IMG/VR virus record: IMGVR_UViG_3300015214_000024
Coordinates: 169,787 to 233,786 of that record
Direction: 5' to 3' (one strand)
DNA from: a virus
Taxonomy: Duplodnaviria; Heunggongvirae; Uroviricota; Caudoviricetes
Length of the DNA stretch: 64,000 bases
The translations under genes and the position numbers were made by a program. Below the pieces are notes generated by a model. The model was not told where the DNA came from, ran no database searches, and saw nothing but the letters and a program-made list of their open reading frames with translations. Of the stretch, positions 10,245 to 61,384 are shown piece after piece. The number at the start of each line of letters is the position of its first letter. Within the stretch, counting starts at the first letter, position 1.

Positions 10245-10445
10245 TGACACGGACTAAATAGTGTAGTAAGTTTAGAACATAAGTTGAAACAAATTTTAAG
10301 GAAAGCAGTTACCATTATGTCACATTCAGTTTATCATTATGAATATGAGCGTGAATATCTCCGTCCAGGGGAGAGTTGGTAACGAGTATTTAAAATACTT
10401 CGACTGAACCGATTCAACCCTGGGACTGAAATCCCAGGGTTTTTT
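10245..10445 (+). promoter_or_regulatory. Attenuator 1: promoter, leader 10317-10382 (MSHSVYHYEYEREYLRPGESW), antiterminator and terminator
   Basis: TTGACA promoter; H/Y/E-rich ORF; AACCCTGGGA/TCCCAGGGTT-TTTT terminator. Confidence 0.85.
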
Positions 10446-10454
10446 CGTTTTTGT

Positions 10455-10531
10455 GGTGGCATAACGCAAACAGGTGAGCGGACTGACTGTGAATCAGTTG
10501 TTAGAGGGTTCAAGTCCCTTGTGTCACACCA
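10455..10531 (+). tRNA. tRNA-His(GUG), A73 type
   Basis: Cloverleaf, loop CUGUGAA, CCA. Confidence 0.9.
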
Positions 10532-10550
10532 AACATTATTGGAGTGAAAA

Positions 10551-10739
10551 ATGGAAGTATTTGTAATCAAAACTGAAGAAGTTGAACGAACGCTTAAATT
10601 TTTTACCCAATTGGGTTTAAATTTTGTTCAAGAACAACACGGTAATGGACCAATCCATTACGCTTGTGAACAAAATGGAGCAGTTTTTGAAATTTACCCT
10701 AAGGGTAAAACTGAAGGTTTTAAATTTATAGATATGTAA
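10551..10739 (+). CDS. Small VOC/glyoxalase-like protein
   Basis: FFTQLGL.F..EQHG.GP.HYA...VFEIYP. Confidence 0.65.
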   Translation: MEVFVIKTEEVERTLKFFTQLGLNFVQEQHGNGPIHYACEQNGAVFEIYPKGKTEGFKFIDM

Positions 10740-10744
10740 TTTTT

Positions 10745-10831
10745 GGGTGGTAAAAGTCAGTGGTTCTGATAGGCAGTCTGTAAAACTGCGCCTTTTCGGA
10801 GGGAGTAGTTCGATTCTACTACCACCCACCA
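10745..10831 (+). tRNA. tRNA-Tyr(GUA)
   Basis: Loop CUGUAAA, long V-arm, CCA. Confidence 0.85.
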
Positions 10832-10840
10832 AGAAATTAT

Positions 10841-10916
10841 GGTGACTGAAGTGTTGACGGATACACGCTTGGTTGTGAACCAGGAGTAACGGGCTCGATA
10901 CCCGTTGGTCACCCCA
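10841..10916 (+). tRNA. tRNA-His(GUG), G-1:C73 type
   Basis: Loop UUGUGAA, CCCA end. Confidence 0.9.
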
Positions 10917-10922
10917 AATTAT

Positions 10923-10998
10923 GCAACGGTCTTCTAATGGTTAGGAACCCTGACTTTCAATCAGGCCAATGCGAGTTCAAGTCTCGTCCGTTGCACCA
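10923..10998 (+). tRNA. tRNA-Glu(UUC)
   Basis: Loop CUUUCAA, CCA. Confidence 0.9.
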
Positions 10999-11157
10999 AA
11001 GCTTGTGCTTTGTGACCCTTCATACGCCCGAGGGTCAGAAAAATATCAGGATGCTGATACGGTATTATATACTAAAGGCATTGGGACCGCGCAGTACGCA
11101 CTACGGCTGAGTCATAAGGACTGAATAGTAGATGCTCGGTAGCGGCGAGCAAAATAT

Positions 11158-11229
11158 GGCGCGGAACGCTAGAGGCGGGCGGCTTGCCTTTCAAGCAAGT
11201 GTAAGCGGGTTCGATACCCGTCCGCGCTA
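11158..11229 (+). tRNA. tRNA-Glu(UUC)
   Basis: CUUGC-CUUUCAA-GCAAG arm. Confidence 0.8.
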
Positions 11230-11234
11230 CTACT

Positions 11235-11307
11235 GGCCCGGTAGTTTAGAGGTTAGAACGCGAGGTTTTCACCCTCGAGAGCGGGGTTCGATGTCCCCGT
11301 CGGGTCA
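11235..11307 (+). tRNA. tRNA-Glu(UUC)
   Basis: CGAGG-UUUUCAC-CCUCG arm. Confidence 0.85.
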
Positions 11308-11322
11308 CAAAAAGGAGTTTAT

Positions 11323-11550
11323 ATGAGTAACACTTTTAAGATTGAACGTGCTAGAAAACTTTACAAAAGCGATAAACCGAGTAAAGATATGAAGTTGACA
11401 GGCACTGGGGAAACTTGTATGAATGGTGATCCATTGTTTGTTAATAATGGTGGCCAACGTTGGGGCAACCAACGTAAAATGAGGGCAAAGATGAAAGTTG
11501 ATGCTCGTAAGTCAGAGAGAATGAAGAACAAGAAGATTGATTTGGAATAA
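11323..11550 (+). CDS. Small basic hypothetical protein
   Basis: AAGGAG RBS, K/R-rich ORF. Confidence 0.65.
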   Translation: MSNTFKIERARKLYKSDKPSKDMKLTGTGETCMNGDPLFVNNGGQRWGNQRKMRAKMKVDARKSERMKNKKIDLE

Positions 11551-11558
11551 AAGAATAT

Positions 11559-11647
11559 GGGTGAGCTGCTCAGATGGCGGATGGGCACCGGACTGTAAAT
11601 CCGGCACATAAGAAACATAGTAGGTTCGAATCCTACCTCACCCACCA
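11559..11647 (+). tRNA. tRNA-Tyr(GUA)
   Basis: CCGGA-CUGUAAA-UCCGG, CCA. Confidence 0.9.
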
Positions 11648-11665
11648 AAATGATGGAGATAATGC

Positions 11666-12055
11666 TTGTTTAAAAATTCTAGAAAACAAGGTGATGCTGG
11701 CTTGGGTCAAGCAATAGCTTGGTTGACTATGAAAGGATATGCTATTAGTATTCCACTAACTGACAATCAAGATTATGATCTAGTTGCTGAAATTGACGGT
11801 GATTTAAAGAAAATTCAAGTCAAGACCGGAACTAGAATTAGTGATAATGGTATTGGGATGATCTATCTTAATGTTGATGGGGGAAATCGAAGCGGAACCG
11901 GTAAATTTAAAAATTTAGACGACCAACATTGGGATTATTTATTTGGTTATCATTTGGATACAAAAGAGATTATTTTTATACCTAAAAATGAAATATGCTC
12001 AAAAAGCCAAATCAATTTAGGTGAAAAATATAGAGACTGGATTTCAAAAATCTAG
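11666..12055 (+). CDS. PD-(D/E)XK homing-type endonuclease
   Basis: QGDAG..YDLV..KIQVKT motif of the group I intron-associated family. Confidence 0.8.
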   Translation: MFKNSRKQGDAGLGQAIAWLTMKGYAISIPLTDNQDYDLVAEIDGDLKKIQVKTGTRISDNGIGMIYLNVDGGNRSGTGKFKNLDDQHWDYLFGYHLDTKEIIFIPKNEICSKSQINLGEKYRDWISKI

Positions 12056-12276
12056 TCTTGAAACTAACTTGTAGAGGATCTGGTGAAAGGTATTTTATAC
12101 CGAAGGGACCAGCTATTCTACCGCGAGATGCGAGATCCGACCCCAAGTAAGTGGGAGTCAAACCGGGTAAGATGGCGTAATGGAAACATAAGCGTAGACT
12201 TACTTTGGGGAGATTGGAGGTTGTGCTACCGGCTAAGTTATGTTTGAAACAAGTTCTTACTAAGCTTGTTTCGTTT

Positions 12277-12361
12277 GGGTGATATGACACAGTGGAGGGT
12301 CACCAGTCTGTAAAACTGGCGCCGAAAGGCACGGTAGGTTCGAACCCTACATCACCCACCA
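12277..12361 (+). tRNA. tRNA-Tyr(GUA)
   Basis: CCAGU-CUGUAAA-ACUGG, CCA. Confidence 0.9.
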
Positions 12362-12378
12362 AATTTGAAAGGCTATGA

Positions 12379-12624
12379 ATGATTTTTACTATTGGTAAAA
12401 AAGAATGGTATGATCAATGGATAGTTGAACAAGGCCCGCTTTTTAAAAAACGTGGCAAAGATGATGAATACAGTGGTGGGTCTGCATTTTTATGCATTGG
12501 TAAAGCAATAAAAAATTGTCCGCCTGGATATGCAATTTACATACTTGACACTAATATTGATAATTTGTATGAAGTAAATGGTAATTTGCATATTATAGAA
12601 AGTTGTAGGATTTGTTTAATATGA
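12379..12624 (+). CDS. Hypothetical protein (paralog of 13990-14241)
   Basis: Shared TIG..WY..WI.EQG..FKK.G..Y.GGSA pattern. Confidence 0.7.
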   Translation: MIFTIGKKEWYDQWIVEQGPLFKKRGKDDEYSGGSAFLCIGKAIKNCPPGYAIYILDTNIDNLYEVNGNLHIIESCRICLI

Positions 12625-13022
12625 AAGCAAGTGTTTGTCAAATGTATGTCAATCCAGACGGTGTTATTCTCCGACGTTGTCCAGATATGGGCGAGCATCA
12701 GCAGATGGTTGACCAATGGATTAAAGATGCTAAGATAGAAGGTGAATATTTTGACGACGTTTTCTTCTTTAGTAATAAAGATGATTACAATACTTTAAAG
12801 TTTTTCAAATGATTTGTCCTTATACTTTTGAAGCTTTTAACTTTAAAATAATGGTTAATACTAGGCAAATAATGAAAGATACAGCCTTCTTTGAAGGACT
12901 TGATAGTCAGAATATTGATTTTCGGTTAGGGTGGAATAGTTGGCCACCAGATATGGCAGTTGGTCCTATTTGGTTTAAGACTGAAGAAGACTTAAACATT
13001 GCTAAATTATTATTATAATAAT

Positions 13023-13099
13023 GGCCCCAGCGTCTGACACGGATAGGACACTAGCCTCTCAAGCTGGAGAACCGGGTTCGAGCCCCGGTGGGGCTACCA
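13023..13099 (+). tRNA. tRNA-Glu(CUC)
   Basis: Loop CUCUCAA, CCA. Confidence 0.9.
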
Positions 13100-13382: not shown

Positions 13383-13476
13383 TATGAGTCAAAACTACTA
13401 AAGACGAATGGTAGAGTCAGCCCGCTCTTATACGGGATAATAGCTGGTTCGATTCCAGTTAGTAGTTTTGGCCATA
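13383..13476 (+). ncRNA. tRNA-like RNA with extended acceptor stem, no CCA
   Basis: D, anticodon and T arms closed by a ~17-bp stem. Confidence 0.6.
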
Positions 13477-13480
13477 CAAT

Positions 13481-13581
13481 GGGCCAATAGTGTATGACGA
13501 AACGCTAATTAATTAGTAAAGTAGGCGGTGAGCACGGGCTTCATACAGGGTCTAGGATGGGTTCGATCCCCATTTGGTCCA
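13481..13581 (+). ncRNA. tRNA-like RNA with D-loop insertion
   Basis: GGGCCAA/UUGGUCC acceptor, GUGU/GCAC D-stem with enlarged loop, T-arm. Confidence 0.55.
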
Positions 13582-13623
13582 CACGTTGACAAACTTAATC
13601 AAATTCGCTATGTTGCATCTATG

Positions 13624-13713
13624 AGCCAGGCGGCGGGAGTAGAACAGTGGTACTTCACCTCCATCCCAGGAGGAGATTGTAGGTTCGATTCCTACCTTGC
13701 CGCCCGTCCTGGC
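13624..13713 (+). ncRNA. tRNA-like RNA (Gly-like) with extended terminal stem
   Basis: CCUCC/GGAGG arm, GUAGGUUCGAUUCCUAC T-arm. Confidence 0.5.
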
Positions 13714-16763: not shown

Positions 16764-17385
16764 ATGCTACGTGGTACACGTTTGATTGAGGGCAAGGAAG
16801 CTCAAACATTTAATGAAGTAATTGATACCTTTCGGAGGTTAGTTCATCCAGTCTGATTTCGAAGAAATCATTGTTCCCAGTATTTGGGAACAAGAAACCT
16901 TTTTGGCCAAAACTGGCCCAGAACTATCTAAACAAATGTGGACCTTTAAGGATAAAGGTGATCGAGACGTTTGTTTGATTCCTGAAGTTACCGGTATTTT
17001 TCAAGAAACTTGGCGTGAAAAATGGTCCAAGTCAATGAAATTCCGTAAAGTGTTTTACGTACAACGCTGTTATAGGTATGAAAGGCCGCAAGCTGGCCGT
17101 TATCGTGAATTTACGCAATTGGGTATTGAAATCCTTGGTAACTATGATAATGGTGATCAAGAGGCTCAAGATTTGTTGAAAGCTGGTCTTGACGCAATTG
17201 GTGTAGAGTATGAATTTGATTCAACCGCGACACGTGGTCTCGGATACTACACTGAGCTTGGTTTTGAAGCTCGTTGCGAATCACTTGGTGCGCAAAAGCA
17301 AGTAGCAGGCGGCGGCCGTTATGCTGAAGGTGTTGGATGGGCTATTGGTGTTGACCGACTGGTTTTAGCTAAAATGAATAAATGA
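16764..17385 (+). CDS. hisS: Minimal histidyl-tRNA synthetase, split by a +1 frameshift at ~16845
   Basis: MLRGTR N-terminus in frame 0; +1 frame gives FEEIIVP, LIPEVT, RYERPQAGRYREFTQ, RGLGYYT, GGGRY, GWAIGVDRL. Confidence 0.85.
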
Positions 17386-21334: not shown

Positions 21335-21557
21335 TTGACTCCGGACTAAATACATTATATAAAGTATAAATAACTTTGTAGAAACTTTTATAGGAAAGTG
21401 AATTTAAAATGTTAAACCTAGTACTCAATCCAGTTAATTTGTTAGGACTCAATCCTAATCAATTGCCTGTGGGTGACTCGGGGACAGCATTTTAAAATCT
21501 AAATAAAAGATTTAAATGAAGGTTACCCCGGGAAACGCAAGTTTACCCGGGTTTTTT
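21335..21557 (+). promoter_or_regulatory. Attenuator 2: promoter, leader 21409-21495 (MLNLVLNPVNLLGLNPNQLPVGDSGTAF), antiterminator and terminator
   Basis: TTGACT and TATAAATA promoters; L/N/P-rich ORF; CCCGGGAAAC-GCAA-GTTTACCCGGG-T6 terminator. Confidence 0.87.
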
Positions 21558-21567
21558 ATTGCTTACA

Positions 21568-21689
21568 AGAGTTTAGTTTAGAGTGTGGTGAAATGGTAAA
21601 CACGGGCGGCTAATAACCGCCCCCCACAGAGGAAACGAGCATTTAAATGAACGTTGCTGGTTCGAGTCCAGCCACTCAAAACTAAACTT
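21568..21689 (+). ncRNA. tRNA-like RNA, AAU anticodon, extended acceptor stem
   Basis: GGCGG-CUAAUAA-CCGCC; ~16-bp terminal stem; no CCA. Confidence 0.6.
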
Positions 21690-21707
21690 TTTGATTTGGA
21701 TTGAACA

Positions 21708-22238
21708 ATGATTGATATTGAACAATATATTCGTTTACCGTTAAATGAGCGCCAAGCACATTTGAAATTGGAAGAAAATTGTATTGTTCGTGGCGGCCCT
21801 AAAGATGGTGGTTTATCATCGTATTGTAAGGGTTTGATGGCTCATATATTGGATACGACAATACCATCTGGTATGAAGATACATATTTGTCACGCTTGCC
21901 ATAATAAACATTGTTCAAATCCAAAACATTTATATTGGGGTACTGCTAAAGAAAATGCTATTGACAACTATAATAACGGTGCTAAAACAGCCCGTGAACG
22001 TACAATAGAAAAATATGGCATTGAAAAGGCAAATGAAATTTTTAAATTAAATTCAACCTTGGCAGCGGCTAAAGGAGGAAGAAAAGGAAAAGGAAAACCA
22101 AAAAGTGATCATCATCGGTTAGCTTTATCAAATGCTGGTAAAGGAACTGTATGGTTTAACAACGGTTTTAAAAATTTAAAAATTAAGATAGGTGGTCAAA
22201 TTCCGGAAGGGTTTGTTCAAGGAATGATTAAAAAATAA
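21708..22238 (+). CDS. HNH homing endonuclease
   Basis: ICHACHNKHCSNPKHLYWGT..EN. Confidence 0.85.
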   Translation: MIDIEQYIRLPLNERQAHLKLEENCIVRGGPKDGGLSSYCKGLMAHILDTTIPSGMKIHICHACHNKHCSNPKHLYWGTAKENAIDNYNNGAKTARERTIEKYGIEKANEIFKLNSTLAAAKGGRKGKGKPKSDHHRLALSNAGKGTVWFNNGFKNLKIKIGGQIPEGFVQGMIKK

Positions 22239-22243: not shown

Positions 22244-22325
22244 GGGGCTGTGGCTAATGCGAATGGTACAGCTAATAGTTTTAGAAACTATGCTTTTGAG
22301 AGTTCGAGTCTCTCCAGCCCTACCA
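22244..22325 (+). tRNA. tRNA-Leu(UAG), short V-arm
   Basis: AUAGU-UUUAGAA-ACUAU, CCA. Confidence 0.8.
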
Positions 22326-22439
22326 GTTTAATTACTGATGCTATTTGACATTGTTGATTGATTTATGTTACTGGTAGGACCTAAAAGATCCTATCAGTGC
22401 CAGGAAGGTAACGGGTAGTGCTGACTACTTCCTGGATTT

Positions 22440-22513
22440 GCTCCTGTAGCCCAAATGGAAGAGGCGGCAGTTTCAAACACTGTACAGTGTGAGTTCGAGT
22501 CTCACCAGGAGCA
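22440..22513 (+). tRNA. tRNA-Leu(CAA), short V-arm
   Basis: GCAGU-UUCAAAC-ACUGU. Confidence 0.85.
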
Positions 22514-22517
22514 CAAG

Positions 22518-22615
22518 ATGATGGTTTAGTCAGGGGTTAGCTCAATTGGTAGAGCACCTGGTCTGGAGCCAGGGGGTTGGGAGTTCAAGTCTCCTGCTCC
22601 TGACTAAACCATCAT
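22518..22615 (+). ncRNA. tRNA-Pro(UGG)-like RNA with ~13-bp acceptor extension
   Basis: Full cloverleaf flanked by AUGAUGGUUUAGU/ACUAAACCAUCAU. Confidence 0.7.
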
Positions 22616-22623
22616 ACTTAAAT

Positions 22624-22699
22624 GCGGTTGTGGGCAAAAGGTAAAGTCGGCAAACTTAAAATTTGTGTCATATTGTGGGTTCGAGTCCCACCTACCGCA
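22624..22699 (+). tRNA. tRNA-Leu(UAA), short V-arm
   Basis: GCAAA-CUUAAAA-UUUGU. Confidence 0.8.
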
Positions 22700-22952
22700 C
22701 AAAAAGATGAAAAAGGCGTTGACAACGTTTTAACATCAAGTTAATATGCGAAACAAGAAACGTACTTAACAGTAAGTTTTTCGTTTAGTGGTATTTCTTT
22801 AATAGCCCTAATAGGCTGGGATTACGGAACGCTATGTTGAAGGACATAACTCGGAAATCCCCGTGTGAGGCGGTCATCCAAAGTGGTAGTCGAATTATGG
22901 TTGGAAGAAACGGAATGTAAGGACCACCGAAATGGTGCAAGGCCATTATAAC

Positions 22953-23027
22953 CGGGGATTAGCTCAGCCGGGTCAGAGCGCCTGCTTTGGGAGCAGGAAG
23001 TCGTAGGTTCGAATCCTACATTCCCGA
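22953..23027 (+). tRNA. tRNA-Pro(UGG)
   Basis: Loop UUUGGGA. Confidence 0.9.
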
Positions 23028-23184
23028 CAATATTAAGCAATGCTGTCATTAAGTAGTAATATTTTTTGATAGGAAAGGCAGCCATTATGGCGGTAAGCTG
23101 GATATATCCATTAACTCAATCATTTGGGTGTGGAATAGCCCGAGCAGAAGTTGGGATCAGGTCCAACCGTTGTTTAATATTAAT

Positions 23185-23268
23185 GCCCTAGTGGTGAAAT
23201 TGGTAGACACACTAGATTTAGGTTCTAGCGCCAAAAGCGTGGGGGTTCGAGTCCCTCCTAGGGCACCA
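23185..23268 (+). tRNA. tRNA-Leu(UAG)
   Basis: Canonical, CCA. Confidence 0.95.
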
Positions 23269-23272
23269 AAAG

Positions 23273-23935
23273 ATGGAGACGAGAATGGAAATTCTTAAAT
23301 TGAAGAATCCTTATCTAAATGGATTTAGTGATGAAAACGATCCAGTTGCTCTGCAATATTTAGATAAGCTGAAAGCGATTAAGGAAGCATTATCATCAGG
23401 CCGCCTCTATTGCCAATATATAGATGGCGATAGAAAAGGATCAATTGCAAAATTGATCCCAGATCCTGCCTATTCTCATATTGAGGATCGCGCGCCATCT
23501 ATTCGATATTCAAGTTCGCACTTTCAAAAAGGTCCTTGGTATCGATTTGAGAATGATATGTTTTTTATGATTGCGACTTGGAATGGCCGCAAGAATAAAG
23601 TTAAAGAAACTTGGTCATATTATAGTCAATTTGAATTTATTATTGGCGATGATATAGAAACTGTATGGCAAAAGTTTGATGCACAAACGGCTAAAGAAGA
23701 AGTACTCAAGAACCCCAATCAAAAGGATATTGATGGTAATGTTCTCAATGTCGGTGATGCAGTAATGTTTGTTAATGCACGTTATGGCTCACGAATGGTA
23801 CTTGAACGTGGCAGAATTAAAGAATTTAAAGTAGTGGTTGATTCGAAGAAAACTTCTATTTCAACTGTTATTGAGAATAGCGAAGGTGCTTTAAGTACAT
23901 TATCATATCCAGAAGATATGGTTTGTAAAATTTAA
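23273..23935 (+). CDS. Hypothetical protein
   Basis: 220-aa ORF between tRNAs. Confidence 0.7.
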   Translation: METRMEILKLKNPYLNGFSDENDPVALQYLDKLKAIKEALSSGRLYCQYIDGDRKGSIAKLIPDPAYSHIEDRAPSIRYSSSHFQKGPWYRFENDMFFMIATWNGRKNKVKETWSYYSQFEFIIGDDIETVWQKFDAQTAKEEVLKNPNQKDIDGNVLNVGDAVMFVNARYGSRMVLERGRIKEFKVVVDSKKTSISTVIENSEGALSTLSYPEDMVCKI

Positions 23936-23938
23936 AAT

Positions 23939-24024
23939 GCGGTTATGGTGGAATGGCAGACACACTATCTTGAGGGGGTAGCGAGAGAAATCTCATAAGG
24001 GTTCAAGTCCCTTTAACCGCACCA
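23939..24024 (+). tRNA. tRNA-Leu(GAG)
   Basis: Loop UUGAGGG, CCA. Confidence 0.9.
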
Positions 24025-24255
24025 AAAAGAACGTTGCGAGTAGCTATCGCATAGTTAGGCTGATATCCTGATGAAGAATCCAGTTAGCCCTGGAAAAACT
24101 ATCCCTGACTTGGAAAGCTGGTTGACATAACATATAATGTCACGTATTGGGATTTATACGATAAATTGAGCCGTGGAGGTGAGCGTTGATCTAGCTGATC
24201 TAAAGTAGGCTAGGGAGTGATCGGACCCGTGAAGCGGACAATTAAATCCCAACAT

Positions 24256-24332
24256 CTGGAAGTAGCGCAGCCTGGTAGCGTACCTCATTTGGAGTGAGGG
24301 GGTCGGAGGTTCAAATCCTCTCTTCCAGACCA
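24256..24332 (+). tRNA. tRNA-Pro(UGG)
   Basis: Loop UUUGGAG, CCA. Confidence 0.9.
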
Positions 24333-24340
24333 ATTATTGT

Positions 24341-24455
24341 GCGGATGTAGCTTAATGGGTTGGTCGAGCTAGATAAGACCAAACTTAGTGGCCACTAAGT
24401 AAAGCGGCAGGTAGTTAACCTGGAGAAGGTGGTTCGATTCCATCCATCCGAGCCA
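24341..24455 (+). ncRNA. tRNA-Asn(GUU)-like RNA with two hairpins in the D-loop
   Basis: D-stem GCUU/AAGC encloses two hairpins; GCCA end. Confidence 0.6.
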
Positions 24456-24590
24456 AAAAGAAATTGAACATATTTTGTTTGTGTGGGTAAAAGCATTGAC
24501 AACGTTAGTATTGCCTCTATAATCTAGACGTTGTGTGGGTTCAAGTCCCTGAGGAGGCTTCAGCTTTTTAACAGCAAATATGTCAATCAT

Positions 24591-24667
24591 TCCCCTGGGG
24601 TCCTATCGGTAGGGACGCCTGACTGTTAATCAGGTTGCTGTAGGTTCGAATCCTACCAGGGGAGCCA
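24591..24667 (+). tRNA. tRNA-Asn(GUU)
   Basis: Loop CUGUUAA, GCCA. Confidence 0.9.
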
Positions 24668-24896
24668 ATTAGAAATTCAAACTAATGATTAATTAGGAAA
24701 CTTGCCAATGGGTCGACACAGACGCAAGGATAATTTTTAAAAATTAGGGAGATAGGAGAAGTCCTGGGCGGGCGCCAACCTTTATGGCTAGCCGGCGCGA
24801 ATATAGGGTTCAATTCCTTATAGTGGAAAACAAAGTCGTGTTTTTCATCCTTGGGCAGGGTAGGTTCAATTCCTCGCTTCTCTGAACGCAACATAT

Positions 24897-24973
24897 TCCC
24901 AATGGGCCCTATTGGCAGGGGCACGACGCTGTTAACGTCGACGCTGTAGGTTCGAATCCTACATTGGGAGCCA
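24897..24973 (+). tRNA. tRNA-Asn(GUU)
   Basis: Loop CUGUUAA, GCCA. Confidence 0.9.
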
Positions 24974-24987
24974 ATTTGAGGTATGAT

Positions 24988-25410
24988 ATGAATTACAAAG
25001 GACATAAAGATAAAATTTATATTTGTGAAAATTGTTTTTCTGAAATAGCCTTCAAAGGCTATTCAAACAAGCACCGATTTTGTGATATGAAATGTGCTGG
25101 TGAATTTAAAGTTAAGGAAACTAAAGATAAAAATTTAAAATTATTCCTTCAAGGTAAATTAACGCGCAGGGATAGAATTTATGAAATATTAGTTGAACGC
25201 GATGGTAATTGCTGTTCTGTTTGTAAAATTACCGAATGGAATGGTAAAGAAATTCGTTTATGGGTTGACCATATTGACGGAAATGCTACCAATAATTCAC
25301 CGAATAATTTTAGACTGATTTGTCCAAATTGTGATTCACAAAGTGAAACTTTTGGAGCCAAGAATCGAGGCAATGGAAGAAAATCAAAAGGATTACCGCA
25401 ATATGGGTAA
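24988..25410 (+). CDS. HNH endonuclease
   Basis: CSVC..VDHIDGN..NN...N.RLICPNC. Confidence 0.88.
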   Translation: MNYKGHKDKIYICENCFSEIAFKGYSNKHRFCDMKCAGEFKVKETKDKNLKLFLQGKLTRRDRIYEILVERDGNCCSVCKITEWNGKEIRLWVDHIDGNATNNSPNNFRLICPNCDSQSETFGAKNRGNGRKSKGLPQYG

Positions 25411-25413
25411 TAT

Positions 25414-25488
25414 TCCGGAGTAACTCAATGGTAGAGTAACTGGCTGTTAACCAGTAAGTTGGGGGTTCGAGTCCCTCCTCCGGAGCCA
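25414..25488 (+). tRNA. tRNA-Asn(GUU)
   Basis: Canonical. Confidence 0.93.
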
Positions 25489-25610
25489 TTAAAGTTTAGG
25501 CAAAAAGAGAAGGCGGTTAAATTCCGTCTAGGCGAGAGATCAAGGGCCCATTTATGGAGGTCTTGGCGAGAGAATATAGCATAATGTTAATGTGCTTTTT
25601 GTCTTACCAT

Positions 25611-25882
25611 TTTGGTATAGTGTAAAGGAAAAGTTCAGTAAGTTGCTGAAAAGTTTCTAATAAGCTTATCGGAGAATAGTGAAAGTATTAACAGTAGCAA
25701 ACGCAAAGGCTATAAAAACCGTGAGCTTGGGAAGGGCAAGACAGGCTGTTAATATGGAAACTGGGATTTGATAAGTGGATGATTAACTTAGTAAGTAGGT
25801 GAAAGGCTTAGTACGTGGTAGCACGCCGGCATAGCACTTGCGTTTTGGAGCCGGAAGTGAGGTTCGAGCCCTCTTACCAGAG
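25611..25882 (+). ncRNA. tRNA-Gln(UUG)-like RNA with ~190-nt D-loop insertion and 12-nt anticodon-loop insertion
   Basis: UUUGGUA/UACCAGA acceptor, GUGU/GCAC D-stem, CCGGC/GCCGG stem, T-arm. Confidence 0.6.
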
Positions 25883-25892
25883 CTAATAGAAA

Positions 25893-26071
25893 TTATCCAT
25901 CGTCTAAACGTGGTACTAACGATAGGGAGTGATCACCTGACAATAGGTCGATTGAAAATTAGTATTGAAATCTACCAATCACGTGTAAGGTAGAAAGTAA
26001 AGAAATGTTTCTTTCAGTTAGGACGCCGCCCGTGGAGGGCGGAAATATCAGCACACTGATTGGATAAACCA
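25893..26071 (+). ncRNA. tRNA-like RNA with ~110-nt D-loop insertion and reduced T-loop
   Basis: UUAUCCA/UGGAUAA-ACCA; GUCU/GGAC D-stem; CCGCC-CGUGGAG-GGCGG. Confidence 0.55.
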
Positions 26072-26185
26072 ATGTGTAGCTTAATTGTTGAGGATTTATT
26101 TTCAACAATTAGTTCGTAAGAATGTTCACCGTATGGTGTAGGACGTTCGGGATATAATTGCGGGGAGGGGCATTATATCATTCAT

Positions 26186-26261
26186 CTAGATGTGGGAAAG
26201 TTGGTAATCCGCCTGTTTCGGGAACAGGAGACCGCCGGTTCGAGCCCGGCCCTCTAGACCA
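26186..26261 (+). tRNA. tRNA-Pro(CGG)
   Basis: Loop UUCGGGA, CCA. Confidence 0.9.
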
Positions 26262-26325
26262 ATTCTTGACATAGCATTGAACTAATGCTATTAGATTTCT
26301 ATTAACAATTTAGCTCAGAAAGGAT

Positions 26326-27591
26326 ATGGCGATGTATGATCAGTATGTATGCGTAATGTTCCCGTATCCTAGTGGCGCTGGCCTGCATTTGGGTCATTAT
26401 TACAACTATGCTGTAATTGACTCATATGCTAGGTGGCAGCGTTTTAAAGGTCAGACGGTTTTTCAACCTTTTGGTTATGATGCTTTTGGCTTGCCTGCAG
26501 AAAACTATGCTCGCCAAATTGGCGGTGATCCTAGAACAATAACTAATCAAAATATTCAAAATTTCCGTAAACAAATGCGAAATATGAATACTTTGTATGA
26601 CGAACAGTTGGTTACTTGTGAAACTGATTACGTTAAGTGGACCCAATGGATCTTTAATGCTTTGAAAGATCGTGGATTAGCATACAAAGCTTGGGGTGAA
26701 GTAAATTGGTGTGAACAGTGCGGGACCGTGTTGGCTAATGAACAAGCGCAAAATGGCATTTGTGAACGCCACGGAACTCCTGTTGAAAAACGTCAAATGA
26801 ATCAGTGGTATTTCAAGATTACTGATTATACTGATCGATTGATTAAGAATTTGGACTGGATTGATTATCCGGAAGGGACTAAGAAGCAACAGCGCAAATG
26901 GTTGGAGGATCAGCAAGATTGGTGTGTCAGTCGTCAGCGTTCTTGGGGCTGTCCTATACCAATTGAAGGTGAAACTGACACCTTGGACACTTTTGTTGAC
27001 TCTTCATTTTATTTCTTGCGCTATTTGACTAAAAGTGAAGATGAGTTTTTGCCAGCTGATCAATACAAGCAAGTCGATCTGTATGTTGGTGGCCCAGAAC
27101 ACGCTTGTATGCATTTGATATATGCTCGTTTTATTCATATGGTTTTGTTTGATATGGGAATTGTTCCTGAAGAAGAGCCATTTAAGAAAGTTATTCATCA
27201 GGGTATGATTACCAAGGATGGGAACAAGATGAGCAAAAGTAAAGGTAATGCCGTTAGTCCTGATGACTATGATCCTGACGAATTGAGAATGTATTTGATG
27301 TTCTTGGGGCCATATTTTGAAGGTGGGGATTGGAGTGACCAGCATATTGTTGGTGTTCGCCGCTTCTTCAATAGGATGAAAACTTGGTTGGGAGAAGCTG
27401 GCACTGAAAATATTGACACTTCTCAGTTGGAAAATCAAATTGATCATTATGTTTCTACTTTCAAATTTAATAAAGTAGTTTCAAGTTTTATGGAATTTAT
27501 GAACAAAAATAAATCCAAAAAAGTTGATAATGAAACTCGAAATAAAATTGTCAGAATGTTGACTAATTTTGCCCCAGGGTTTCGAATTTAA
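26326..27591 (+). CDS. leuS: Minimal leucyl-tRNA synthetase (no CP1 editing or C-terminal domain)
   Basis: MFPYPSG.GLHLGH, DAFGLPAEN, DWCVSRQR.WG, DTFVDSS, KMSKSKGN; only 421 aa. Confidence 0.93.
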   Translation: MAMYDQYVCVMFPYPSGAGLHLGHYYNYAVIDSYARWQRFKGQTVFQPFGYDAFGLPAENYARQIGGDPRTITNQNIQNFRKQMRNMNTLYDEQLVTCETDYVKWTQWIFNALKDRGLAYKAWGEVNWCEQCGTVLANEQAQNGICERHGTPVEKRQMNQWYFKITDYTDRLIKNLDWIDYPEGTKKQQRKWLEDQQDWCVSRQRSWGCPIPIEGETDTLDTFVDSSFYFLRYLTKSEDEFLPADQYKQVDLYVGGPEHACMHLIYARFIHMVLFDMGIVPEEEPFKKVIHQGMITKDGNKMSKSKGNAVSPDDYDPDELRMYLMFLGPYFEGGDWSDQHIVGVRRFFNRMKTWLGEAGTENIDTSQLENQIDHYVSTFKFNKVVSSFMEFMNKNKSKKVDNETRNKIVRMLTNFAPGFRI

Positions 27592-27770
27592 GTAGTTGAC
27601 AGTGAATAGATTGTTTGCTACTATGAATACATAAGCAGTTAAGCAGTTTTGGTCCACGGTGGTTCCAGCAAATGTTGGAGGGTAGATGGTTCGAATCCAT
27701 TTAAGAAAACCTGGGTTAGGTTTAAACCAAAAGAGCGTTCAAATCGCTCCGCCAAAAACCGTTTAATTAT

Positions 27771-28724
27771 TATGCCCACTTGGCGGAATTTGAATATGAT
27801 AAACCTTGAAAATATTGTTGAATCTCTCAAAAGGCAATATCCTGAATATGATTATGAGATATTGAATAATAAGATTGGAATCTGGGATCCTCCTGGAAAC
27901 CATTATAAAGGAAGATACCATATACAAATTGCAGAATGTGAAATAACTGAAGACAAAAATTATGATCATAATTTTTGGATAGATTTTTTAGAAAAATGTA
28001 TCTTTATTCATAGAATGAATAAGTATAATTTTTAATTAAAATTTGCGTCAACTATAAATAAAGCTAAAAGGTAACTTTATGCTTTGTGATTATGGTTGCG
28101 AACAGGAATCAAATTTTGTTCTTAAAAATGGTAAAAATTGTTGCGCAAAGAGTCAAAATTCATGTCCTGCAATAAGGGCTAAGACTGGGGCAACTGTTAA
28201 GCATCAATTTAAATCTGGCAGTAGAAAACGTCAACCATATGTTTATGCTGATTTGCCTGATGAAACAAAAGAGAGAATGAAATGGAACAAAGGAAAAGAA
28301 ATTGTTCCAAACGAAATTGTGTTTGCTGAAAATAGCAAATATGATAATGATGTGGTTAAAAAAAGAATTTTACAAAACAATCTTTTAGATTATAAATGTG
28401 CCGAATGTGAGTTGACAGAATGGCAAGGCAAAAGTATAGTGTTGGAGTTAGAACACTGCAACGGCGTTCGAAACGATCATAGGATTGAAAACTTAAAGTT
28501 TTTGTGTCCAAATTGCCACTCACAAACGGAAACGTTTAGAGGAAGAAACAAAAACACTGGAAAAGTTATTGTTACTGATGAAGAGTTGTTGACAGCGTTA
28601 AAGTCGACTGCTAATATAAGACAAGCTTTACAGAGTGTAGGACTTGCTGCTAAAGGCGGAAATTATGCTCGAGTTAAAGCTTTAAAATTAAAGTTTAATG
28701 TTTAATATGCCCACTTGGCGGAAT
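27771..28724 (+). mobile_element. HNH-carrying insertion bounded by a 19-bp direct repeat of the tRNA-Leu 5' end
   Basis: TATGCCCACTTGGCGGAAT at 27771 and 28706. Confidence 0.65.
28079..28705 (+). CDS. HNH endonuclease
   Basis: CAEC..LELEHCNG..D.R.ENL.FLCPNCH. Confidence 0.88.
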   Translation: MLCDYGCEQESNFVLKNGKNCCAKSQNSCPAIRAKTGATVKHQFKSGSRKRQPYVYADLPDETKERMKWNKGKEIVPNEIVFAENSKYDNDVVKKRILQNNLLDYKCAECELTEWQGKSIVLELEHCNGVRNDHRIENLKFLCPNCHSQTETFRGRNKNTGKVIVTDEELLTALKSTANIRQALQSVGLAAKGGNYARVKALKLKFNV

Positions 28725-28864
28725 GGTAGACGCCAGGGACTTGTCGGAAAGAAACCTTAGGGTTTAGAACGCCACTTAGTATGGCGACGGTGCGAATCCG
28801 GAATCCGAAAGCTAAAATCCCTTGCCCTTTGGGCGTACCGGTTCGAGTCCGGTAGTGGGTACCA
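28709..28864 (+). tRNA. tRNA-Leu(UAA) with a 71-nt structured insert in the anticodon
   Basis: AGGGA-CUU^AAAA-UCCCU restored if 28743-28813 is removed. Confidence 0.8.
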
Positions 28865-29495: not shown

Positions 29496-29582
29496 GCGGG
29501 TATGGCGGAATTGGTAGACGCGACTGACTCAAAATCAGTTTCCCGAAAGGGAGTGGGGGTTCGAGTCCCTCTACCCGCACCA
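29496..29582 (+). tRNA. tRNA-Leu(CAA)
   Basis: Canonical, CCA. Confidence 0.95.
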
Positions 29583-29762
29583 AACTGGAAGGATTTAAAT
29601 CTTAGCAGTTTGACCTATTTGAATGCTATGTTAGATTAAACTGGCCTAAAGCTGCCAATCCTAACGGATCGTGGCATAGCAAACAAGTGGGACTGCTAAA
29701 CGTACTAAGCGGGATTGGAACATGTGCGTGACTTTGCTAAGTTTCAGAGTAAATTTAGCTAT

Positions 29763-29800
29763 TCTTCAGTGGTGGAACTGGTAAACACATTAGACTAAAT
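29763..29800 (+). pseudogene. tRNA-Leu 5' half
   Basis: GUGGUGGAACUGGUAAACAC D-arm, truncated just before an endonuclease ORF. Confidence 0.5.
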
Positions 29801-29805
29801 ACATT

Positions 29806-45240: not shown

Positions 45241-45879
45241 ATGAAATATATTATCTATAAAATCACAAATAATTTGGATGGAAAAATTTACATCGGTAAA
45301 CATCAAACAATGAATATTGATGACGGCTATATGGGCTCTGGTAAATTAATCAGACGAGCGATCCAAAAGTATGGTGTTGAAAATTTCACTAAGGAAATTT
45401 TGTTTGTTTTGGATTCTGAAGAAGAGATGAATTTAAAAGAAGCAGAAATTGTCACGGAAGAATTTATAAGCAAAAATAATACTTATAATTTGTGTTCCGG
45501 AGGCAAAGGCGGCTTCTCATATATCAATAGAAATGGGCTTGGAGTTTCAGAAAATCAAAAAGAAGCTTCACGTAAATTTGCCTATAGAAATCTTGAAAAA
45601 ATTAATGCTCCGGAAAATATAGATTTGAAGCGGGCGGCGATGGCTAAAGTTAATCAAATTAGAATTGATCGAGGCATAAAACCATTTCTTGGCAAGAAAC
45701 ACTCAGAAGAAACTATTGCCAAAATGAAAGAATCCAGCAAGGGCAAAAGCACTGGTAGCAAAAATTCGCAATTTGGAACAATGTGGATTACTGATGGATC
45801 AGTGAACAAAAAAATAGATAGGGATTCTATAATCCCAACTGGATGGAAGCCGGGAAGATTGATGAAAAATATACCCTAA
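45241..45879 (+). CDS. GIY-YIG (Seg-like) homing endonuclease with NUMOD3
   Basis: IIYKITN..KIYIGKH, YMGSG, GKKHSEET. Confidence 0.9.
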   Translation: MKYIIYKITNNLDGKIYIGKHQTMNIDDGYMGSGKLIRRAIQKYGVENFTKEILFVLDSEEEMNLKEAEIVTEEFISKNNTYNLCSGGKGGFSYINRNGLGVSENQKEASRKFAYRNLEKINAPENIDLKRAAMAKVNQIRIDRGIKPFLGKKHSEETIAKMKESSKGKSTGSKNSQFGTMWITDGSVNKKIDRDSIIPTGWKPGRLMKNIP

Positions 45880-47341: not shown

Positions 47342-47896
47342 TTATGAAAGGATCGTTATGAACATTTATAAAATGTTGGATGAGTTCCCGTATGGGATTG
47401 TGGTCCTTGAGGGGGATTATGTTAAGCATATTTGTCTTTATCCTTCAATGCCCACACAAGCTGATGCTGAAGGATTGTACGATGAACTTCAAAAAGATCC
47501 GGAGCACGGAATGATTGGTGAAGATTTATCCAAGATGAATTTTTGTCCAGCCTCTGGCGAATTATTAAAAGAAGCTATAAGGGCATTTTCAAGTGAAAGC
47601 TATGAATAATAAGGATTTTGTAGAATATACCACTGATCCAGATTTATGGCCAGATCTTGTTGAGATCAGTGATATTTTAGTACGCTTCCCATTTTATATG
47701 AAATGTGATCAGTTCTCAGATGCGGTGTTATTGGCTGAACAATTTGACCGATATTTTGAAGACCAAGATTTGTTTATGGTGTGCAGACAATATGATAATT
47801 TTGTTTTCTTTGAGTCAGAAGAAGCAAGGGCTATTGCGGCAATAATTAAATAAAAGTAGTTGACAGACTATAAATAACATAGTAGATTATACAAAT

Positions 47897-57283: not shown

Positions 57284-57358
57284 TGCCCGGTAGTTCAATG
57301 GTGGAACACTAGACTTTGAATCTGGGGGTTGTAGGTTCGAGTCCTACCCGGGCATCCA
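57284..57358 (+). tRNA. tRNA-Gln(UUG)
   Basis: Loop CUUUGAA. Confidence 0.92.
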
Positions 57359-58135
57359 AGTTGGTTCATTCGGATTTAGGTTCGGGTGGTCAATGGCTCC
57401 TATTAGGACCAACGCCCAAGGGATTAATCCACGCCGTTGCTCTTCTGATAGATCAGTATGTTGACACAGGCTTGTATTTCCTTGTTAGAAAACAAGGTGG
57501 CGGAACGGATGTTCTTTTGAATTTAGGAGGCTTCGTTCGTGAAGCCTCCTTTTCCTTTGAGTGGAGAGTATATGACTGACGAAGTTGAAATGTTCAGGAC
57601 CGAAGAAGAAGCAAAAGAATATTGGGACGATGTTACTCTTCGTGCAGATATTATCGAAGGTGTAGTCCGAACACTAATCGTAGCCAAGGATGGCACGTAT
57701 AATCGCAACAGCGATGCATCATTTGATCGGTTTGATATCAGGTCTGCGGTAGCGATGGCGCTTAGCCTTTATACTGACAAGAACCTTGAATTGATTGAAA
57801 TGATGAACAAAGTCACAACACGTGATTGACTTTAATTTCCTAAAAGTTTAATATCCTTTTCTACAAGATAGGAAAGTTTATGAATCCGCCAGCAAAAGAC
57901 AAGTCGCCCATTGACGATTTCATTGGACCATTTTCTAAGAAACATCACGTTATTGCTGAAATTCTAAGTCCAGGACTTTGGTCTGAGTCATCTCACGAAC
58001 ACGTTAATTGGTGTTTGTGGGCTAAACAGTCTTTTTATCGTCGAAATACATATTTTGGCGTGCAATTTTGGTTTAAGCGTGTAGATGCGTTAGAACAAGC
58101 TGATAAAATCATTAAGGCTATTGAGGAGATTGAAA

Positions 58136-58882
58136 GTGAATGATAAATTTGAAAAACTGATCGATCGCCTTAGCCAAAAGATACGGCTTTCGGCTAATCC
58201 AGTTCCCGGATTTATTGTTGGTTTGAGTGGGACTGATTCAATCGTCACATTTATACTTCTTTATGAAGCCTTGAAGCGCTACAATCGCGAAGATCGTCTT
58301 TATGGTATTCATTACGTTAATGAATATCGAAAAAAGCCATCGTGGTTTGAAAAAGATATTATTCCTTGGTTGGCGGAAACTTATCCAAACACTCGGCTTG
58401 AAGTCCATACACCATTAGGTGGAAATTTTGATCAACAACGATGGGCTGATTTACATTTACGGGCATTGAATGAAATTGTTGTAAACGGGTTTGGTGAAAA
58501 GAAACTAAAGTTATTTGATCCTGGGCAAAACTACTGGGTTTCTGGTTGTATGAATGCCACTGAAAAAGCTCTTGGAAATTACAGCATTTTATCCAATAGC
58601 GTAAGCATTCAGCCCATTCAGACAATTTACAAGGGAGAAATTTTGGATATTTGTGTCGAACATAATGTTCCTGAAATTGCTATCGAAATGTCGCAAATTC
58701 CTGACTGCTTCTGTGGTCGAGAAGAAATTGCTGCTCACAATGTTCGTTTGATTGATGAAATTATCACTTACAAGTTGGATCCTTCAAAATATGATCCAGA
58801 ATTGCTGGCTGAAGTTTATGCCTATGTTCAAGAAACTAAGCGAGCCAATGATTTCAAAAACAGGACACCATTTAACGTATGA
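58136..58882 (+). CDS. NAD synthetase-like PP-loop protein
   Basis: VGLSGTDS PP-loop; NATE..LG.Y; QPI..YK.EI. Confidence 0.6.
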   Translation: MNDKFEKLIDRLSQKIRLSANPVPGFIVGLSGTDSIVTFILLYEALKRYNREDRLYGIHYVNEYRKKPSWFEKDIIPWLAETYPNTRLEVHTPLGGNFDQQRWADLHLRALNEIVVNGFGEKKLKLFDPGQNYWVSGCMNATEKALGNYSILSNSVSIQPIQTIYKGEILDICVEHNVPEIAIEMSQIPDCFCGREEIAAHNVRLIDEIITYKLDPSKYDPELLAEVYAYVQETKRANDFKNRTPFNV

Positions 58883-59532
58883 TTATCCATACTACGTTAA
58901 TTCGACAGCGCCCGGGTGGAAAAATGGTGGGTATGCTTGGCGTATTAAAATATACTGGTGGTGATCTTTCAGGAATAGCTCAAGCATTATATAAACCATC
59001 AAGGATATATAGTGCTTGGCTTTCAATCAAACATTGGAAGAAAGTTACACATTGCGCAACATTATTTTATGATATTAGTAAGCATCAAGAACTTAGCTAT
59101 GAATTACAAAAGTATGGAATCCAGGCCAATCATTCAGAATTTAAGCATTACAATTCAATGAAGGCTAAATTATATTTAGAAGATCACGAAGCTACTGTGT
59201 TAAGAATTATAGCTTGACACGAATATTTGATAGCTGTATAACGACATTATTACGGCAGTTGGTAGTGTGTAACAGGTTCGATCCCTGACCAATTTGTAAT
59301 AGAATTGAGTAAGCCCACACAAATTTTTAGAAAGGTTGAAATGTCAAAGCGTATCTTTAAGCGTTGTGAAGCAATTCAAATACTTAATGATCTTTTTGAT
59401 CCAGACTATATGGATGAATCGGATCGAATTGATTACACCAAGTGGTCAAACGACCAACTTGAAGGTGAGCTTTGTTGCTCAGGCTATATCCACGATGAGG
59501 ATATGGGCGGAGTGGTAAATTAAAAAAAAAAT

Positions 59533-59605
59533 GGACGGTTAGCTCAGTAGGTAGAGCGGGATCCTTTTAAGTTCTTGGCCGGGGGTTCGAATCCCTCACC
59601 GTCTA
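59533..59605 (+). tRNA. tRNA-Lys(UUU)
   Basis: Loop CUUUUAA. Confidence 0.88.
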
Positions 59606-60211
59606 CAGGAGAATAATCAATGATGGACCACTTTAAAACAGTTTTGGCGGTTACCTTCTTTTTTGCCATTTTAGGCGCAACTCTTGGTCCTCTTTTTGGT
59701 TTTCAACAAGTTATAAACCAGAAGCAAGAATGTTATACTCACACTGAATATGACAATACATTTTCATACGGTTGTGCAGGTCTTGGTTTGGTGTCGGGGC
59801 TTGTCCTTGTTTATCAAGAAGTTCGCCGCAATAAGGGTAAGAAAATAGATGATGACACAAAAAGAGATCAATCAGAAGATTGATGATATAGCCAAATGGG
59901 TCAAGCAAGGCCATAGTCAAAGTCCATCAAATTGCCGACTTTTGTTGGCTGAAATCCAACGCCTACGAGAATTAGCGAACACACTACGATGAACGAGAAG
60001 CGATTCTATGTATATGCCAGTTTCTTTAATGGCAAACGCGGCTGGTATAGAATCCGTGGAGTAGATTCTGGTGGCAATTATATTGGCAATTTCCCTGAAG
60101 GTGTTGATAAATTACCAGGTATGAAGTTTTGCCAAGATAGACCAAAAGGCAAACAAGTTAGTGAACACGTGGTCAAAGAATATTTTGGATATGTAGGCAA
60201 GGAGGTCGAAA

Positions 60212-60421
60212 ATGTCAGTTGAGTATAGGTTTTCTGAAGAAGAAGTTCAGGAACGCTTTGACGAAATTATGGATCTAGTTGATAAAGAACGTGCCCACGT
60301 GATTATTACTCGCGATGGGGTAGATGTAGCTGCGCTAATTCCGTATGAAGATTGGGAGTTTTATCAATCACTAATTAATAGTGATTGGAAAGAAGTTGGA
60401 GAGCGTAATGAAGAAGGTTAA
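60212..60421 (+). CDS. Orphan Phd/YefM-family antitoxin
   Basis: E..ERFDEIMDLV...VIITRDG...AALIPYEDWE. Confidence 0.75.
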   Translation: MSVEYRFSEEEVQERFDEIMDLVDKERAHVIITRDGVDVAALIPYEDWEFYQSLINSDWKEVGERNEEG

Positions 60422-61311
60422 TGTAGAAATTACCAATCGTGGCGCTGTTTATGTTAATGATACGCGGATCACAGGACGCCATACTAAATGGGGTGTCCAC
60501 AATGTCGTATGCAGGTTGGATAAAATTCGCCTTGATAGTGTCCGCCAAGCAATCATAGATGCCGGTTATGGTCATATTAGGCTTGATGATCAGTATTGTG
60601 AGGAAATGGGAATTTGATAGCTATGAATAGCTATGCTGATCTTAAAAAGAAATATGAAGATCAATTCAAAAATGGCGAACTTTTAGGCCATAGTGAATTA
60701 GCGGAAACTTATAGAGACAGTAACACGTTATGGTTAAAGATTAAAAACAGGCATTCTGGCAACATAGTGCAATCTAATGTTATTGAAGCTATTTTTGATT
60801 GGTCGGAATATGTTGGTATTAGAACTGAAAGCTCATTGTTGAGAAATCCACTTGGATGGCGACGTCATCCAAGTATTATGTTTTGTGATGAGTATTTTAC
60901 TGCAATATTTCCAAGATATGATTGGCAGAAAACCGCAGCAATAATTACTTGGGGTGAGTATTTTACGACGAGAAAATTAAATGTTCCTTCGAGCCAAAGT
61001 TATTGAAGTCAACAATCATTTCGATATTTCTATGATTTCATCTATTGTTATTGGTACTAATGATGCTGATGGTTTTAAGCGATGGATGGATAGAAATTAT
61101 TTGTTTATTACGCTTGGCAGTTTTGGCACGATGGTTTGTCCAGTTGCTAATTTTGATCAATATGTAAAGCTACTATACCAAAGAAGTAACCAACCTAACA
61201 TTGATAAAATTATTAAAAAGTGGGGAATTTATGACCCAAATCAAAAAACTTTTCTTGAAAAAACAAAAGGGTGGTTGACATTCAATTTTGGTTCGTTTAT
61301 AGACGTGTAAT

Positions 61312-61384
61312 GCCTCTGTAGCTCAGTGGATAGAGCGCCGTGCTTCGAACGCGGAGGTCGTAGGTTCGATCCCTACCAGGGGCT
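61312..61384 (+). tRNA. tRNA-Arg(UCG)
   Basis: Loop CUUCGAA. Confidence 0.92.

Follow-up and report, generated by a model that had tools for sequence, protein, structure and literature searches.

Why does a large phage sort its transfer RNA (tRNA) genes by amino acid, and why does each sorted group begin with a short open reading frame (ORF) and a terminator? These questions are raised by a 64,000-nucleotide (nt) stretch of DNA (the window), which spans C1:169787-233786 of the 455,147-base virus record IMGVR_UViG_3300015214_000024. The phage carries a T4-type major capsid gene and is a T4-like jumbo phage; among cultured phages, Sinorhizobium phage Phosso (69.5%) and the Rak2-like jumbo phages (~65%) have the most similar capsid proteins. 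The sequencing runs that match it best, two landfill metagenomes, may be where it came from. We found that three tRNA blocks in the window, and a fourth outside it, are each headed by a cassette consisting of a promoter-like site, a leader ORF rich in codons for the amino acids of that block, and an intrinsic terminator. Judging from sequence and folding models, these cassettes are very probably ribosome-mediated attenuators that gate the tRNA blocks and exert negative feedback on tRNA supply. The purpose of phage tRNA genes has been debated for more than 50 years (PMC10264068), and tRNA genes switched on by slow reading of their own codons would show that they answer a shortage.

We used ARAGORN and Rfam to locate the ordinary tRNA genes, 59 of which lie in three blocks in the window:

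10456 to 13099, plus strand: tRNA block A, nine genes (two His, three Tyr, and four Glu, the last with anticodons UUC x3 and CUC x1), with small ORFs between them
22244 to 31541, plus strand: tRNA block B, 15 genes (six Leu, five Pro, and four Asn), with a short leuS-like gene inside
40117 to 61385, plus strand: tRNA block C, 35 genes for 12 amino acids (Val, Phe, Ile, Met, Asp, Arg, Ala, Lys, Gln, Trp, Gly, and Thr), with ORFs between them

ARAGORN labels the gene at 22244 as Ile; its anticodon arm is that of Leu(UAG). Considering the four blocks together (64 tRNAs, including the Ser block outside the window), no amino acid is found in more than one block, whereas shuffling the tRNA order in 200,000 rounds always gave at least 12 extra occurrences (mean 21). 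The four units (His/Tyr/Glu, Leu/Asn/Pro, the 12-amino-acid unit, and Ser) span 19 of the 20 amino acids. The sorting described by the first-pass annotation of this DNA, which was made from the sequence alone, therefore holds between blocks, but it is not complete, as a lone tRNA-Val(UAC) lies outside the blocks at 36713, with its own promoter-like site at 36229, and odd tRNA-like genes follow block A.

Each block begins with the same parts in the same order: a sigma-70-like promoter and a purine-rich ribosome-binding site (RBS) precede the leader, which has 21, 28, or 34 codons, and behind the leader come a hairpin and then a G+C stem followed by a U tract. The first-pass annotation had placed these three cassettes correctly, and had suggested that a Ser or Cys cassette might be found elsewhere in the genome:

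10244 to 10272, plus strand: putative promoter A (-35 TTGACA, 17-nt spacer with TAAATA, -10 TAAGTT)
10317 to 10382, plus strand: leader ORF A, 21 codons behind a purine-rich RBS, with 2 His, 4 Tyr, and 4 Glu among the 20 codons after Met
10416 to 10447, plus strand: intrinsic terminator A, a 10-base-pair (bp) stem and U tract that ends ~9 nt before tRNA-His
21335 to 21372, plus strand: putative promoter B (-35 TTGACT, 17-nt spacer with TAAATA, -10 TATAAA, followed by the T4-late-like TATAAATA)
21409 to 21495, plus strand: leader ORF B, 28 codons, with 7 Leu, 5 Asn, and 3 Pro of 27, all within codons 2-20
21521 to 21558, plus strand: antiterminator partner and intrinsic terminator B, stem at ~21527-21551 and U tract from 21552
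39860 to 39895, plus strand: putative promoter C (-35 TTGACA, 17-nt spacer with TAAATA, -10 TAAAGT, followed by TATAAATA)
39940 to 40044, plus strand: leader ORF C, 34 codons, with 31 of 33 in the set of its block and all 12 of 12 amino acids present
40074 to 40105, plus strand: intrinsic terminator C, which ends 11 nt before tRNA-Val
C1:300422-300247, minus strand: Ser cassette (D), with the same promoter type, an RBS, a 15-codon leader, an antiterminator, and a terminator

The leader of cassette D contains seven consecutive Ser codons, and downstream of it are five tRNA-Ser genes and nothing else. Its terminator has changed on both sides at 4 of 9 pairs, with 97% of cells paired, in an alignment of only four sequences. 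A Cys cassette was not found before the Cys pair in this genome. The distance from leader stop to U tract is 55-57 nt in cassettes A, B, and C, and 44-64 nt across all cassettes analysed; in folding models, which cannot show pausing, hairpins form within the leaders and between stop and terminator.

The promoter pattern TTGAC.C(C)GGA.TAAATA proposed for the cassettes has exactly three matches in the 455-kb genome, which are those of A, B, and C; with three mismatches it does not exceed chance in the window, so that only exact matches are informative. The conserved parts are TTGAC and TAAATA, but the CGGA core is absent from cassette D and from several orthologues. Promoter C is conserved in four relatives, as are the leader RBS and start codon in orthologues, and no sigma-70 region 2 gene was found in the phage genome. 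The T4-late-type TATAAATA stands beside sigma-70-like promoters at 21365-21372, 39888-39895, and 47867-47874, and in another large phage (G001) a motif of the TATAAATA type lies a few bases before leader start codons that have no Shine-Dalgarno sequence. Two metatranscriptome contigs, 21388-21656 and 39912-40141, are identical to the phage and bridge terminators B and C. We did not count them as evidence, because library DNA is possible and contigs give no ends or levels. Each cassette acts in cis and independently, and no regulator is common to them, so that the earlier term "regulon" is too strong.

Does each leader match its own block? In-set codons make up 10/20 of leader A, 15/27 of B, 31/33 of C, and 7/14 of the Ser leader, and the binomial probabilities against the phage proteome (A 3.2e-5, B 1.2e-5, C 3.2e-5; 1-3e-5 each over all four) bear out the claim that the leaders are built from the amino acids of their blocks. 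No leader is enriched for the amino acids of another block. Leader C lacks His, Tyr, Leu, Asn, Pro, Ser, and Cys entirely, and has two Glu near its end. The genome has 681 short ORFs led by an RBS, and among them only leaders A, B, and C reach their level for their own sets; for the Ser set, the Ser leader is joined at this level by four unrelated ORFs.

The last codons of each leader are predicted to pair with the 5' arm of the terminator (A -20.5, B -18.5, C -14.1, and D -14.2 kcal/mol; tail-shuffle P = 0.002, 0.000, 0.025, and 0.005), in agreement with the complementarity reported earlier for A to C. In ribosome-masked folding, the leader held the terminator 5' arm through codons 13, 19, 25, and 10 (A to D) and freed it afterwards. 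The last sensing codons are codon 14 of the His/Tyr/Glu run in A, Pro 20 in B, and Ser 11 in D; the points of arm release thus coincide with the end of the sensing stretches, and the last 5-9 codons constitute the pairing segment. In these models the antiterminator and terminator are mutually exclusive, and a ribosome on the sensing codons leaves the antiterminator free. Across 27 cassettes, leader tails form duplexes totalling -355.7 kcal/mol with their own arms versus -244.2 +/- 14.1 kcal/mol with the arms of others, although this set was chosen after inspection and shared G+C content may add to the difference.

In the mechanism that we propose, polymerase would start at the cassette promoter and a ribosome would translate the leader. 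If the tRNAs of the block are plentiful and charged, the ribosome would reach the end of the leader and cover its G-rich 3' segment, the terminator hairpin would form, and transcription would end just before the first tRNA. If the sensing codons are read slowly, the ribosome would lag, the G-rich segment would pair with the terminator 5' arm, and polymerase would read into the tRNA block. The new tRNAs would then speed the reading of these very codons, so that tRNA supply would be under negative feedback. What the sequences and folding models show are the anatomy, the sorting, the leader-block match, its covariation across phages, and the exclusive helices; leader translation, switching, and purpose we infer.

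The sign of this response could be the opposite, such that efficient leader translation causes read-through, giving positive feedback or coupling to active translation. Models without a ribosome leave the default state unsettled, which leaves room for this explanation. In all 36 cassettes modelled, however, a ribosome at the leader stop frees the arm from the leader and a ribosome upstream leaves it paired (a result partly dictated by how the mask is constructed), and the pairing partner lies within the last codons of the leader, as in stall-activated attenuators. We consider an opposite sign very unlikely.

We examined six relative contigs, whose ThrRS proteins are 76-89% identical; the threonyl-tRNA synthetase gene (thrS) is located upstream of cassette A. 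Directly behind thrS are a His/Tyr/Glu leader and His, Tyr, and Glu tRNAs in L147, L148, and L150, and a Ser leader and Ser tRNAs in L144, L149, and L152; leader and block move as one module. The orthologues of cassette C (n = 4) all keep a leader length of 34 and 12/12 amino acids, and 25 of 27 alternative residues in these leaders stay within the set (62% expected, P = 4e-4).

In other large phages the tRNA genes are grouped differently (Cys/Val/Leu, Ile/Thr/Val, Leu/Met/Arg, Ala/Glu/Gly/Tyr, and more), and single-amino-acid units for Ser, His, Asn, and Gln occur in G001 and G004. We scanned with a rule blind to composition, which takes a terminator before a tRNA and an ORF of 12-40 codons ending 40-70 nt upstream. 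The scan yielded 27 cassettes with a summed Z of 91.0 for the match between leader and block, compared to a permutation maximum of 39.6; leaving out the phage studied here, 23 cassettes gave a summed Z of 72.9 against a maximum of 40.4 in 100,000 permutations. The covariation that the first-pass annotation had predicted thus exceeds every permutation, with statistics that ignore phylogeny. Because the groupings differ among phages, the match cannot be put down to descent from a single common leader.

It could be argued that the ORFs encode functional small peptides or arose by chance, and that the sorting reflects only gene history. tRNA genes do duplicate and move in groups, and chance Ser-rich short ORFs do occur, as the four others in this genome illustrate. 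However, leaders of different phages share no sequence and have in common only the match to their own block, and orthologues swap residues freely inside the set. We regard this explanation as extremely unlikely.

Phages with mixed tRNA arrays (G005, G007, G013, and Phosso) have one leader with 19-20 different amino acids. These four had been intended as cassette-free controls and were withdrawn from that role when their nearly all-amino-acid leaders were found. Such leaders are in effect general sensors, and leader C, a 12-valent leader in which each amino acid has one codon or a few, also favours the possibility that the cassettes gauge translation speed in general or serve as a timer, such that any global slowdown in infection, whether from shut-off, ribosome damage, or starvation, opens all units together and the codon match is fine tuning. 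General translational stress is known to induce a bacterial tRNA array (PMC8421152). Such a gauge is nevertheless unlikely, given that single-amino-acid units exist (Ser here; Ser, His, Asn, and Gln in G001 and G004) and that leaders such as leader C exclude the amino acids of other blocks, which a general gauge would not need to do.

Cassettes are also present in cultured phages. Phosso has a 54-codon ORF, annotated as XYS97753 (419754-419918), with a matching antiterminator and with a strong terminator that has a second promoter-like site right behind it. In Agrobacterium phage Atu_ph07, whose terminator lies near 339066 on the minus strand, the leader has 42 codons and is rich in the amino acids of the first block; it includes Thr and Asn as well, and the paper on this phage reports no tRNA for either. 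Four other cultured jumbo phages (Vibrio phage 2.275.O, Serratia phage BF, and Xanthomonas phages XaC1 and XacN1) showed no cassette in the tRNA regions that were scanned; the system is therefore common without being universal. G003 has no cassette within 900 nt of one block, the partial genome G002 has a single, non-significant candidate, and a terminator pattern search of viral contigs gave no match. In G006 (L116-L121), a Gln/His/Leu/Pro/Ser/Tyr block (C1:77583-105418) and a block whose tRNAs mostly read codons starting with A or G (119392-162790) each have a long matching leader, as seen by eye.

Several observations weigh against attenuation as the control of these genes, or limit its reach. 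Promoter-like sites occur inside the blocks, at 22719, 24496, 27596, 47860, 51013, 52395, and 57244; that at 24496 is a perfect promoter consensus before the first Asn tRNA, and that at 47860 precedes all Gly and Thr tRNAs. As the first-pass annotation had cautioned, these sites could supply distal tRNAs independently, including all Asn, Gly, and Thr genes. No terminators as strong as those of the cassettes were found inside the blocks; therefore, cassette read-through could still add to the distal tRNAs. In this genome, the tRNA-Val at 36713, two Cys genes, and two distal Arg genes have no cassette. The Ser antiterminator is conserved without two-sided changes, and about one-third of the cassettes from other phages lack a significant duplex between tail and arm within the fixed window used. 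Equilibrium folds favour the full terminator in A and D at every ribosome position. Because the terminator wins at equilibrium there, the choice must be kinetic and made during transcription, as it is in attenuators already known, a process that our folds of transcripts ending before the terminator 3' arm can only approximate. The leader A of L148 has a stop at codon 4 (L148:1667-1680), which is either a natural deregulated allele or a contig or assembly error.

At the codon level the match is also weaker than at the amino-acid level. Strict codon-anticodon identity was rejected, since no leader exceeds the synonymous codon use of the phage, and coverage of isoacceptors is only mildly high (33 of 36 classes versus 28.6 expected, P = 0.01). 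U-ending wobble codons are favoured (16 of 17 versus 11.9 expected, P = 0.02). A one-for-one match of Leu and Ser codons does exist, but is non-significant on its own (P = 0.48 and 0.32).

Some of these observations suit another arrangement, in which the terminators dampen transcription to a fixed degree, internal promoters provide most of the tRNA, and the leaders set a constant read-through or are relics of a working attenuator. The many consensus-like promoters inside the blocks, the broken leader A in one relative, and the preference of equilibrium folds for the terminator are all consistent with it. A fixed damper needs no codon match, however, and leader length, frame, composition, and pairing are kept over diverged orthologues and distant phages. 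We judge fixed damping to be quite unlikely.

If the cassettes are attenuators, what opens them? An attenuator leader responds to anything that slows its codons, and amino-acid starvation would open such a leader. We lean modestly towards loss of functional tRNA, through host tRNases or phage-driven decay, as the main trigger ahead of starvation, because extra tRNA cures tRNA loss and does not cure starvation. The leading idea for phage tRNAs is that they replace host tRNAs that have been cleaved by nucleases or have decayed (PMC10264068; PMC7824862). In Salmonella, the his leader reacts to slow decoding from various causes, among them stops, rare codons, and codon context (PMC4046918). Genes for synthetases, a TROVE protein, and a release factor are also present in the genome, as would suit a phage that shores up damaged translation.

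Leader attenuators are well known from the biosynthesis operons of E. coli and Salmonella (trpL, hisL, leuL, pheL, thrL, and ilvL), and multivalent leaders exist among them (thrL and ilvL). The phage cassettes resemble the trpL/hisL type in all features that can be tested from sequence: a short ORF rich in cognate codons, a 3' segment that pairs with the terminator 5' arm, and an intrinsic terminator before the first gene. Together with the leader-block match, this anatomy supports the trp/his/thr-type logic proposed earlier. Unlike trpL/hisL-type operons, the phage units have tRNAs, small ORFs, and a short leuS-like gene as targets rather than biosynthetic enzymes, so that the product is the sensed molecule itself; parallel units also divide the genetic code, and one leader can cover as many as 12 (or 20) amino acids. 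The Rfam models of amino-acid leaders (His, Leu, Thr, Trp, and Phe) gave no match at gathering score, the best being His_leader with 12.9 bits against a gathering score of 49 (E = 9.3).

Two systems that control components of translation are also similar in part. The pheM attenuator controls E. coli pheST, which encodes phenylalanyl-tRNA synthetase, and likewise couples leader-peptide attenuation of a translation component to charged tRNA supply; unlike the phage cassettes, it concerns one amino acid and one enzyme and is chromosomal. A T-box binds uncharged tRNA directly with no ribosome, and senses charging rather than tRNA loss. It shares with the cassettes antitermination keyed to the state of a specific tRNA, and its targets may include tRNA genes, as a Clostridium T-box reportedly lies upstream of such genes. 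No T-box riboswitch was matched by Rfam in the window. The nearest biological parallel that we found is the trn operon of Anabaena PCC 7120, a back-up tRNA set induced when translation is impaired (PMC8421152). Unlike the phage blocks, it is one mixed operon not sorted by amino acid, and its description mentions no attenuation or T-box (PMC8421152).

The first-pass annotation knew of no earlier description of attenuation control for phage tRNA arrays. Accounts of phage tRNA genes describe no promoter, leader, or attenuation control of them (PMC10264068; PMC7824862), and our searches, which covered mainly the open literature, brought up no report of tRNA genes or phage tRNA arrays under leader-peptide control. 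The cassettes would extend a known attenuation mechanism to a new target class, tRNA genes, and to viruses. They would also explain the amino-acid sorting of some phage tRNA arrays and provide natural multi-codon sensors of tRNA supply. We consider it somewhat better than an even chance that many large phages run such a feedback controller of the tRNA pool, with leaders that sense lost tRNAs group-wise and switch on the matching genes. If so, this would be an inducible counter-defence, for example against host anticodon nucleases, that works without a sensor protein, and the leader sequences of each phage would be a record of the tRNAs that it monitors as a group. The cultured phages Phosso (Sinorhizobium) and Atu_ph07 (Agrobacterium) have the same design, which makes it testable now, and the trigger can be tested tRNA by tRNA.

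Other features lie around or within the blocks in the window:

9059-10243: thrS, encoding a ThrRS of 394 amino acids with N-terminal domains missing
21579 to 21680 (wider element 21566-21692), plus strand: atypical tRNA-like RNA, the first gene behind terminator B
26326-27591, in block B: leuS-like gene, encoding a short form of 421 amino acids

Both thrS and serS are upstream of cassettes and beyond their control; only the short leuS-like gene is inside a block. The leuS gene assigned to block B by the first-pass annotation is present as a leuS-like gene, but its product falls below the NCBIfam cut-off. Like ThrRS, it is a shortened synthetase, and this short form has >1,000 close relatives. 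The thrS and serS genes are neighbours in relatives (L144, L147, L149, and L152) and lie 120 kb apart on opposite strands in this phage. A rearrangement at the similar cassette promoters (10225-10245 and C1:300422) is possible; the cassette behind thrS differs among these genomes.

Three tRNA-like genes with abnormal anticodon loops follow block A. They have an 8-nt loop with CUUA (13393-13468), a UCA loop and an enlarged D arm (13481-13582), and a 6- or 8-nt loop (13631-13705), and are possibly suppressors, frameshift tRNAs, or mimics. The tRNA-like RNA at 21566-21692 has a Leu-type D arm, a long variable arm, AAU at the anticodon position, and a 13-bp outer stem. It may partner the TROVE protein (4893-6452) as a Y-like RNA. 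A tRNA-Leu(UAA) at 28709-28864, detected only with relaxed ARAGORN settings, has an insert of ~71 nt in its anticodon loop, which is too short for a group I intron. Homing-endonuclease-like genes are found among the tRNAs at 21708-22238 (Cys/His motifs only) and 45241-45879 (GIY-YIG match), and one sequencing-run contig skips 21693-22315, the region of the former.

Two further genes appear interrupted. A short hisS-like gene at 16764-17385 is split over two frames, with an N-terminal part that stops at UGA and a catalytic part in the +1 frame; a programmed frameshift is possible. A release-factor gene with RF1/PrfH-like matches (C1:303030-302377, minus strand; L153 ~6377-7030) is interrupted by an in-frame UGA at codon 32. 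Because the 31-codon first part and its UGA stop are kept in three relatives (L144:7276, L147:7043, and L149:2281), programmed read-through is suggested for this gene.

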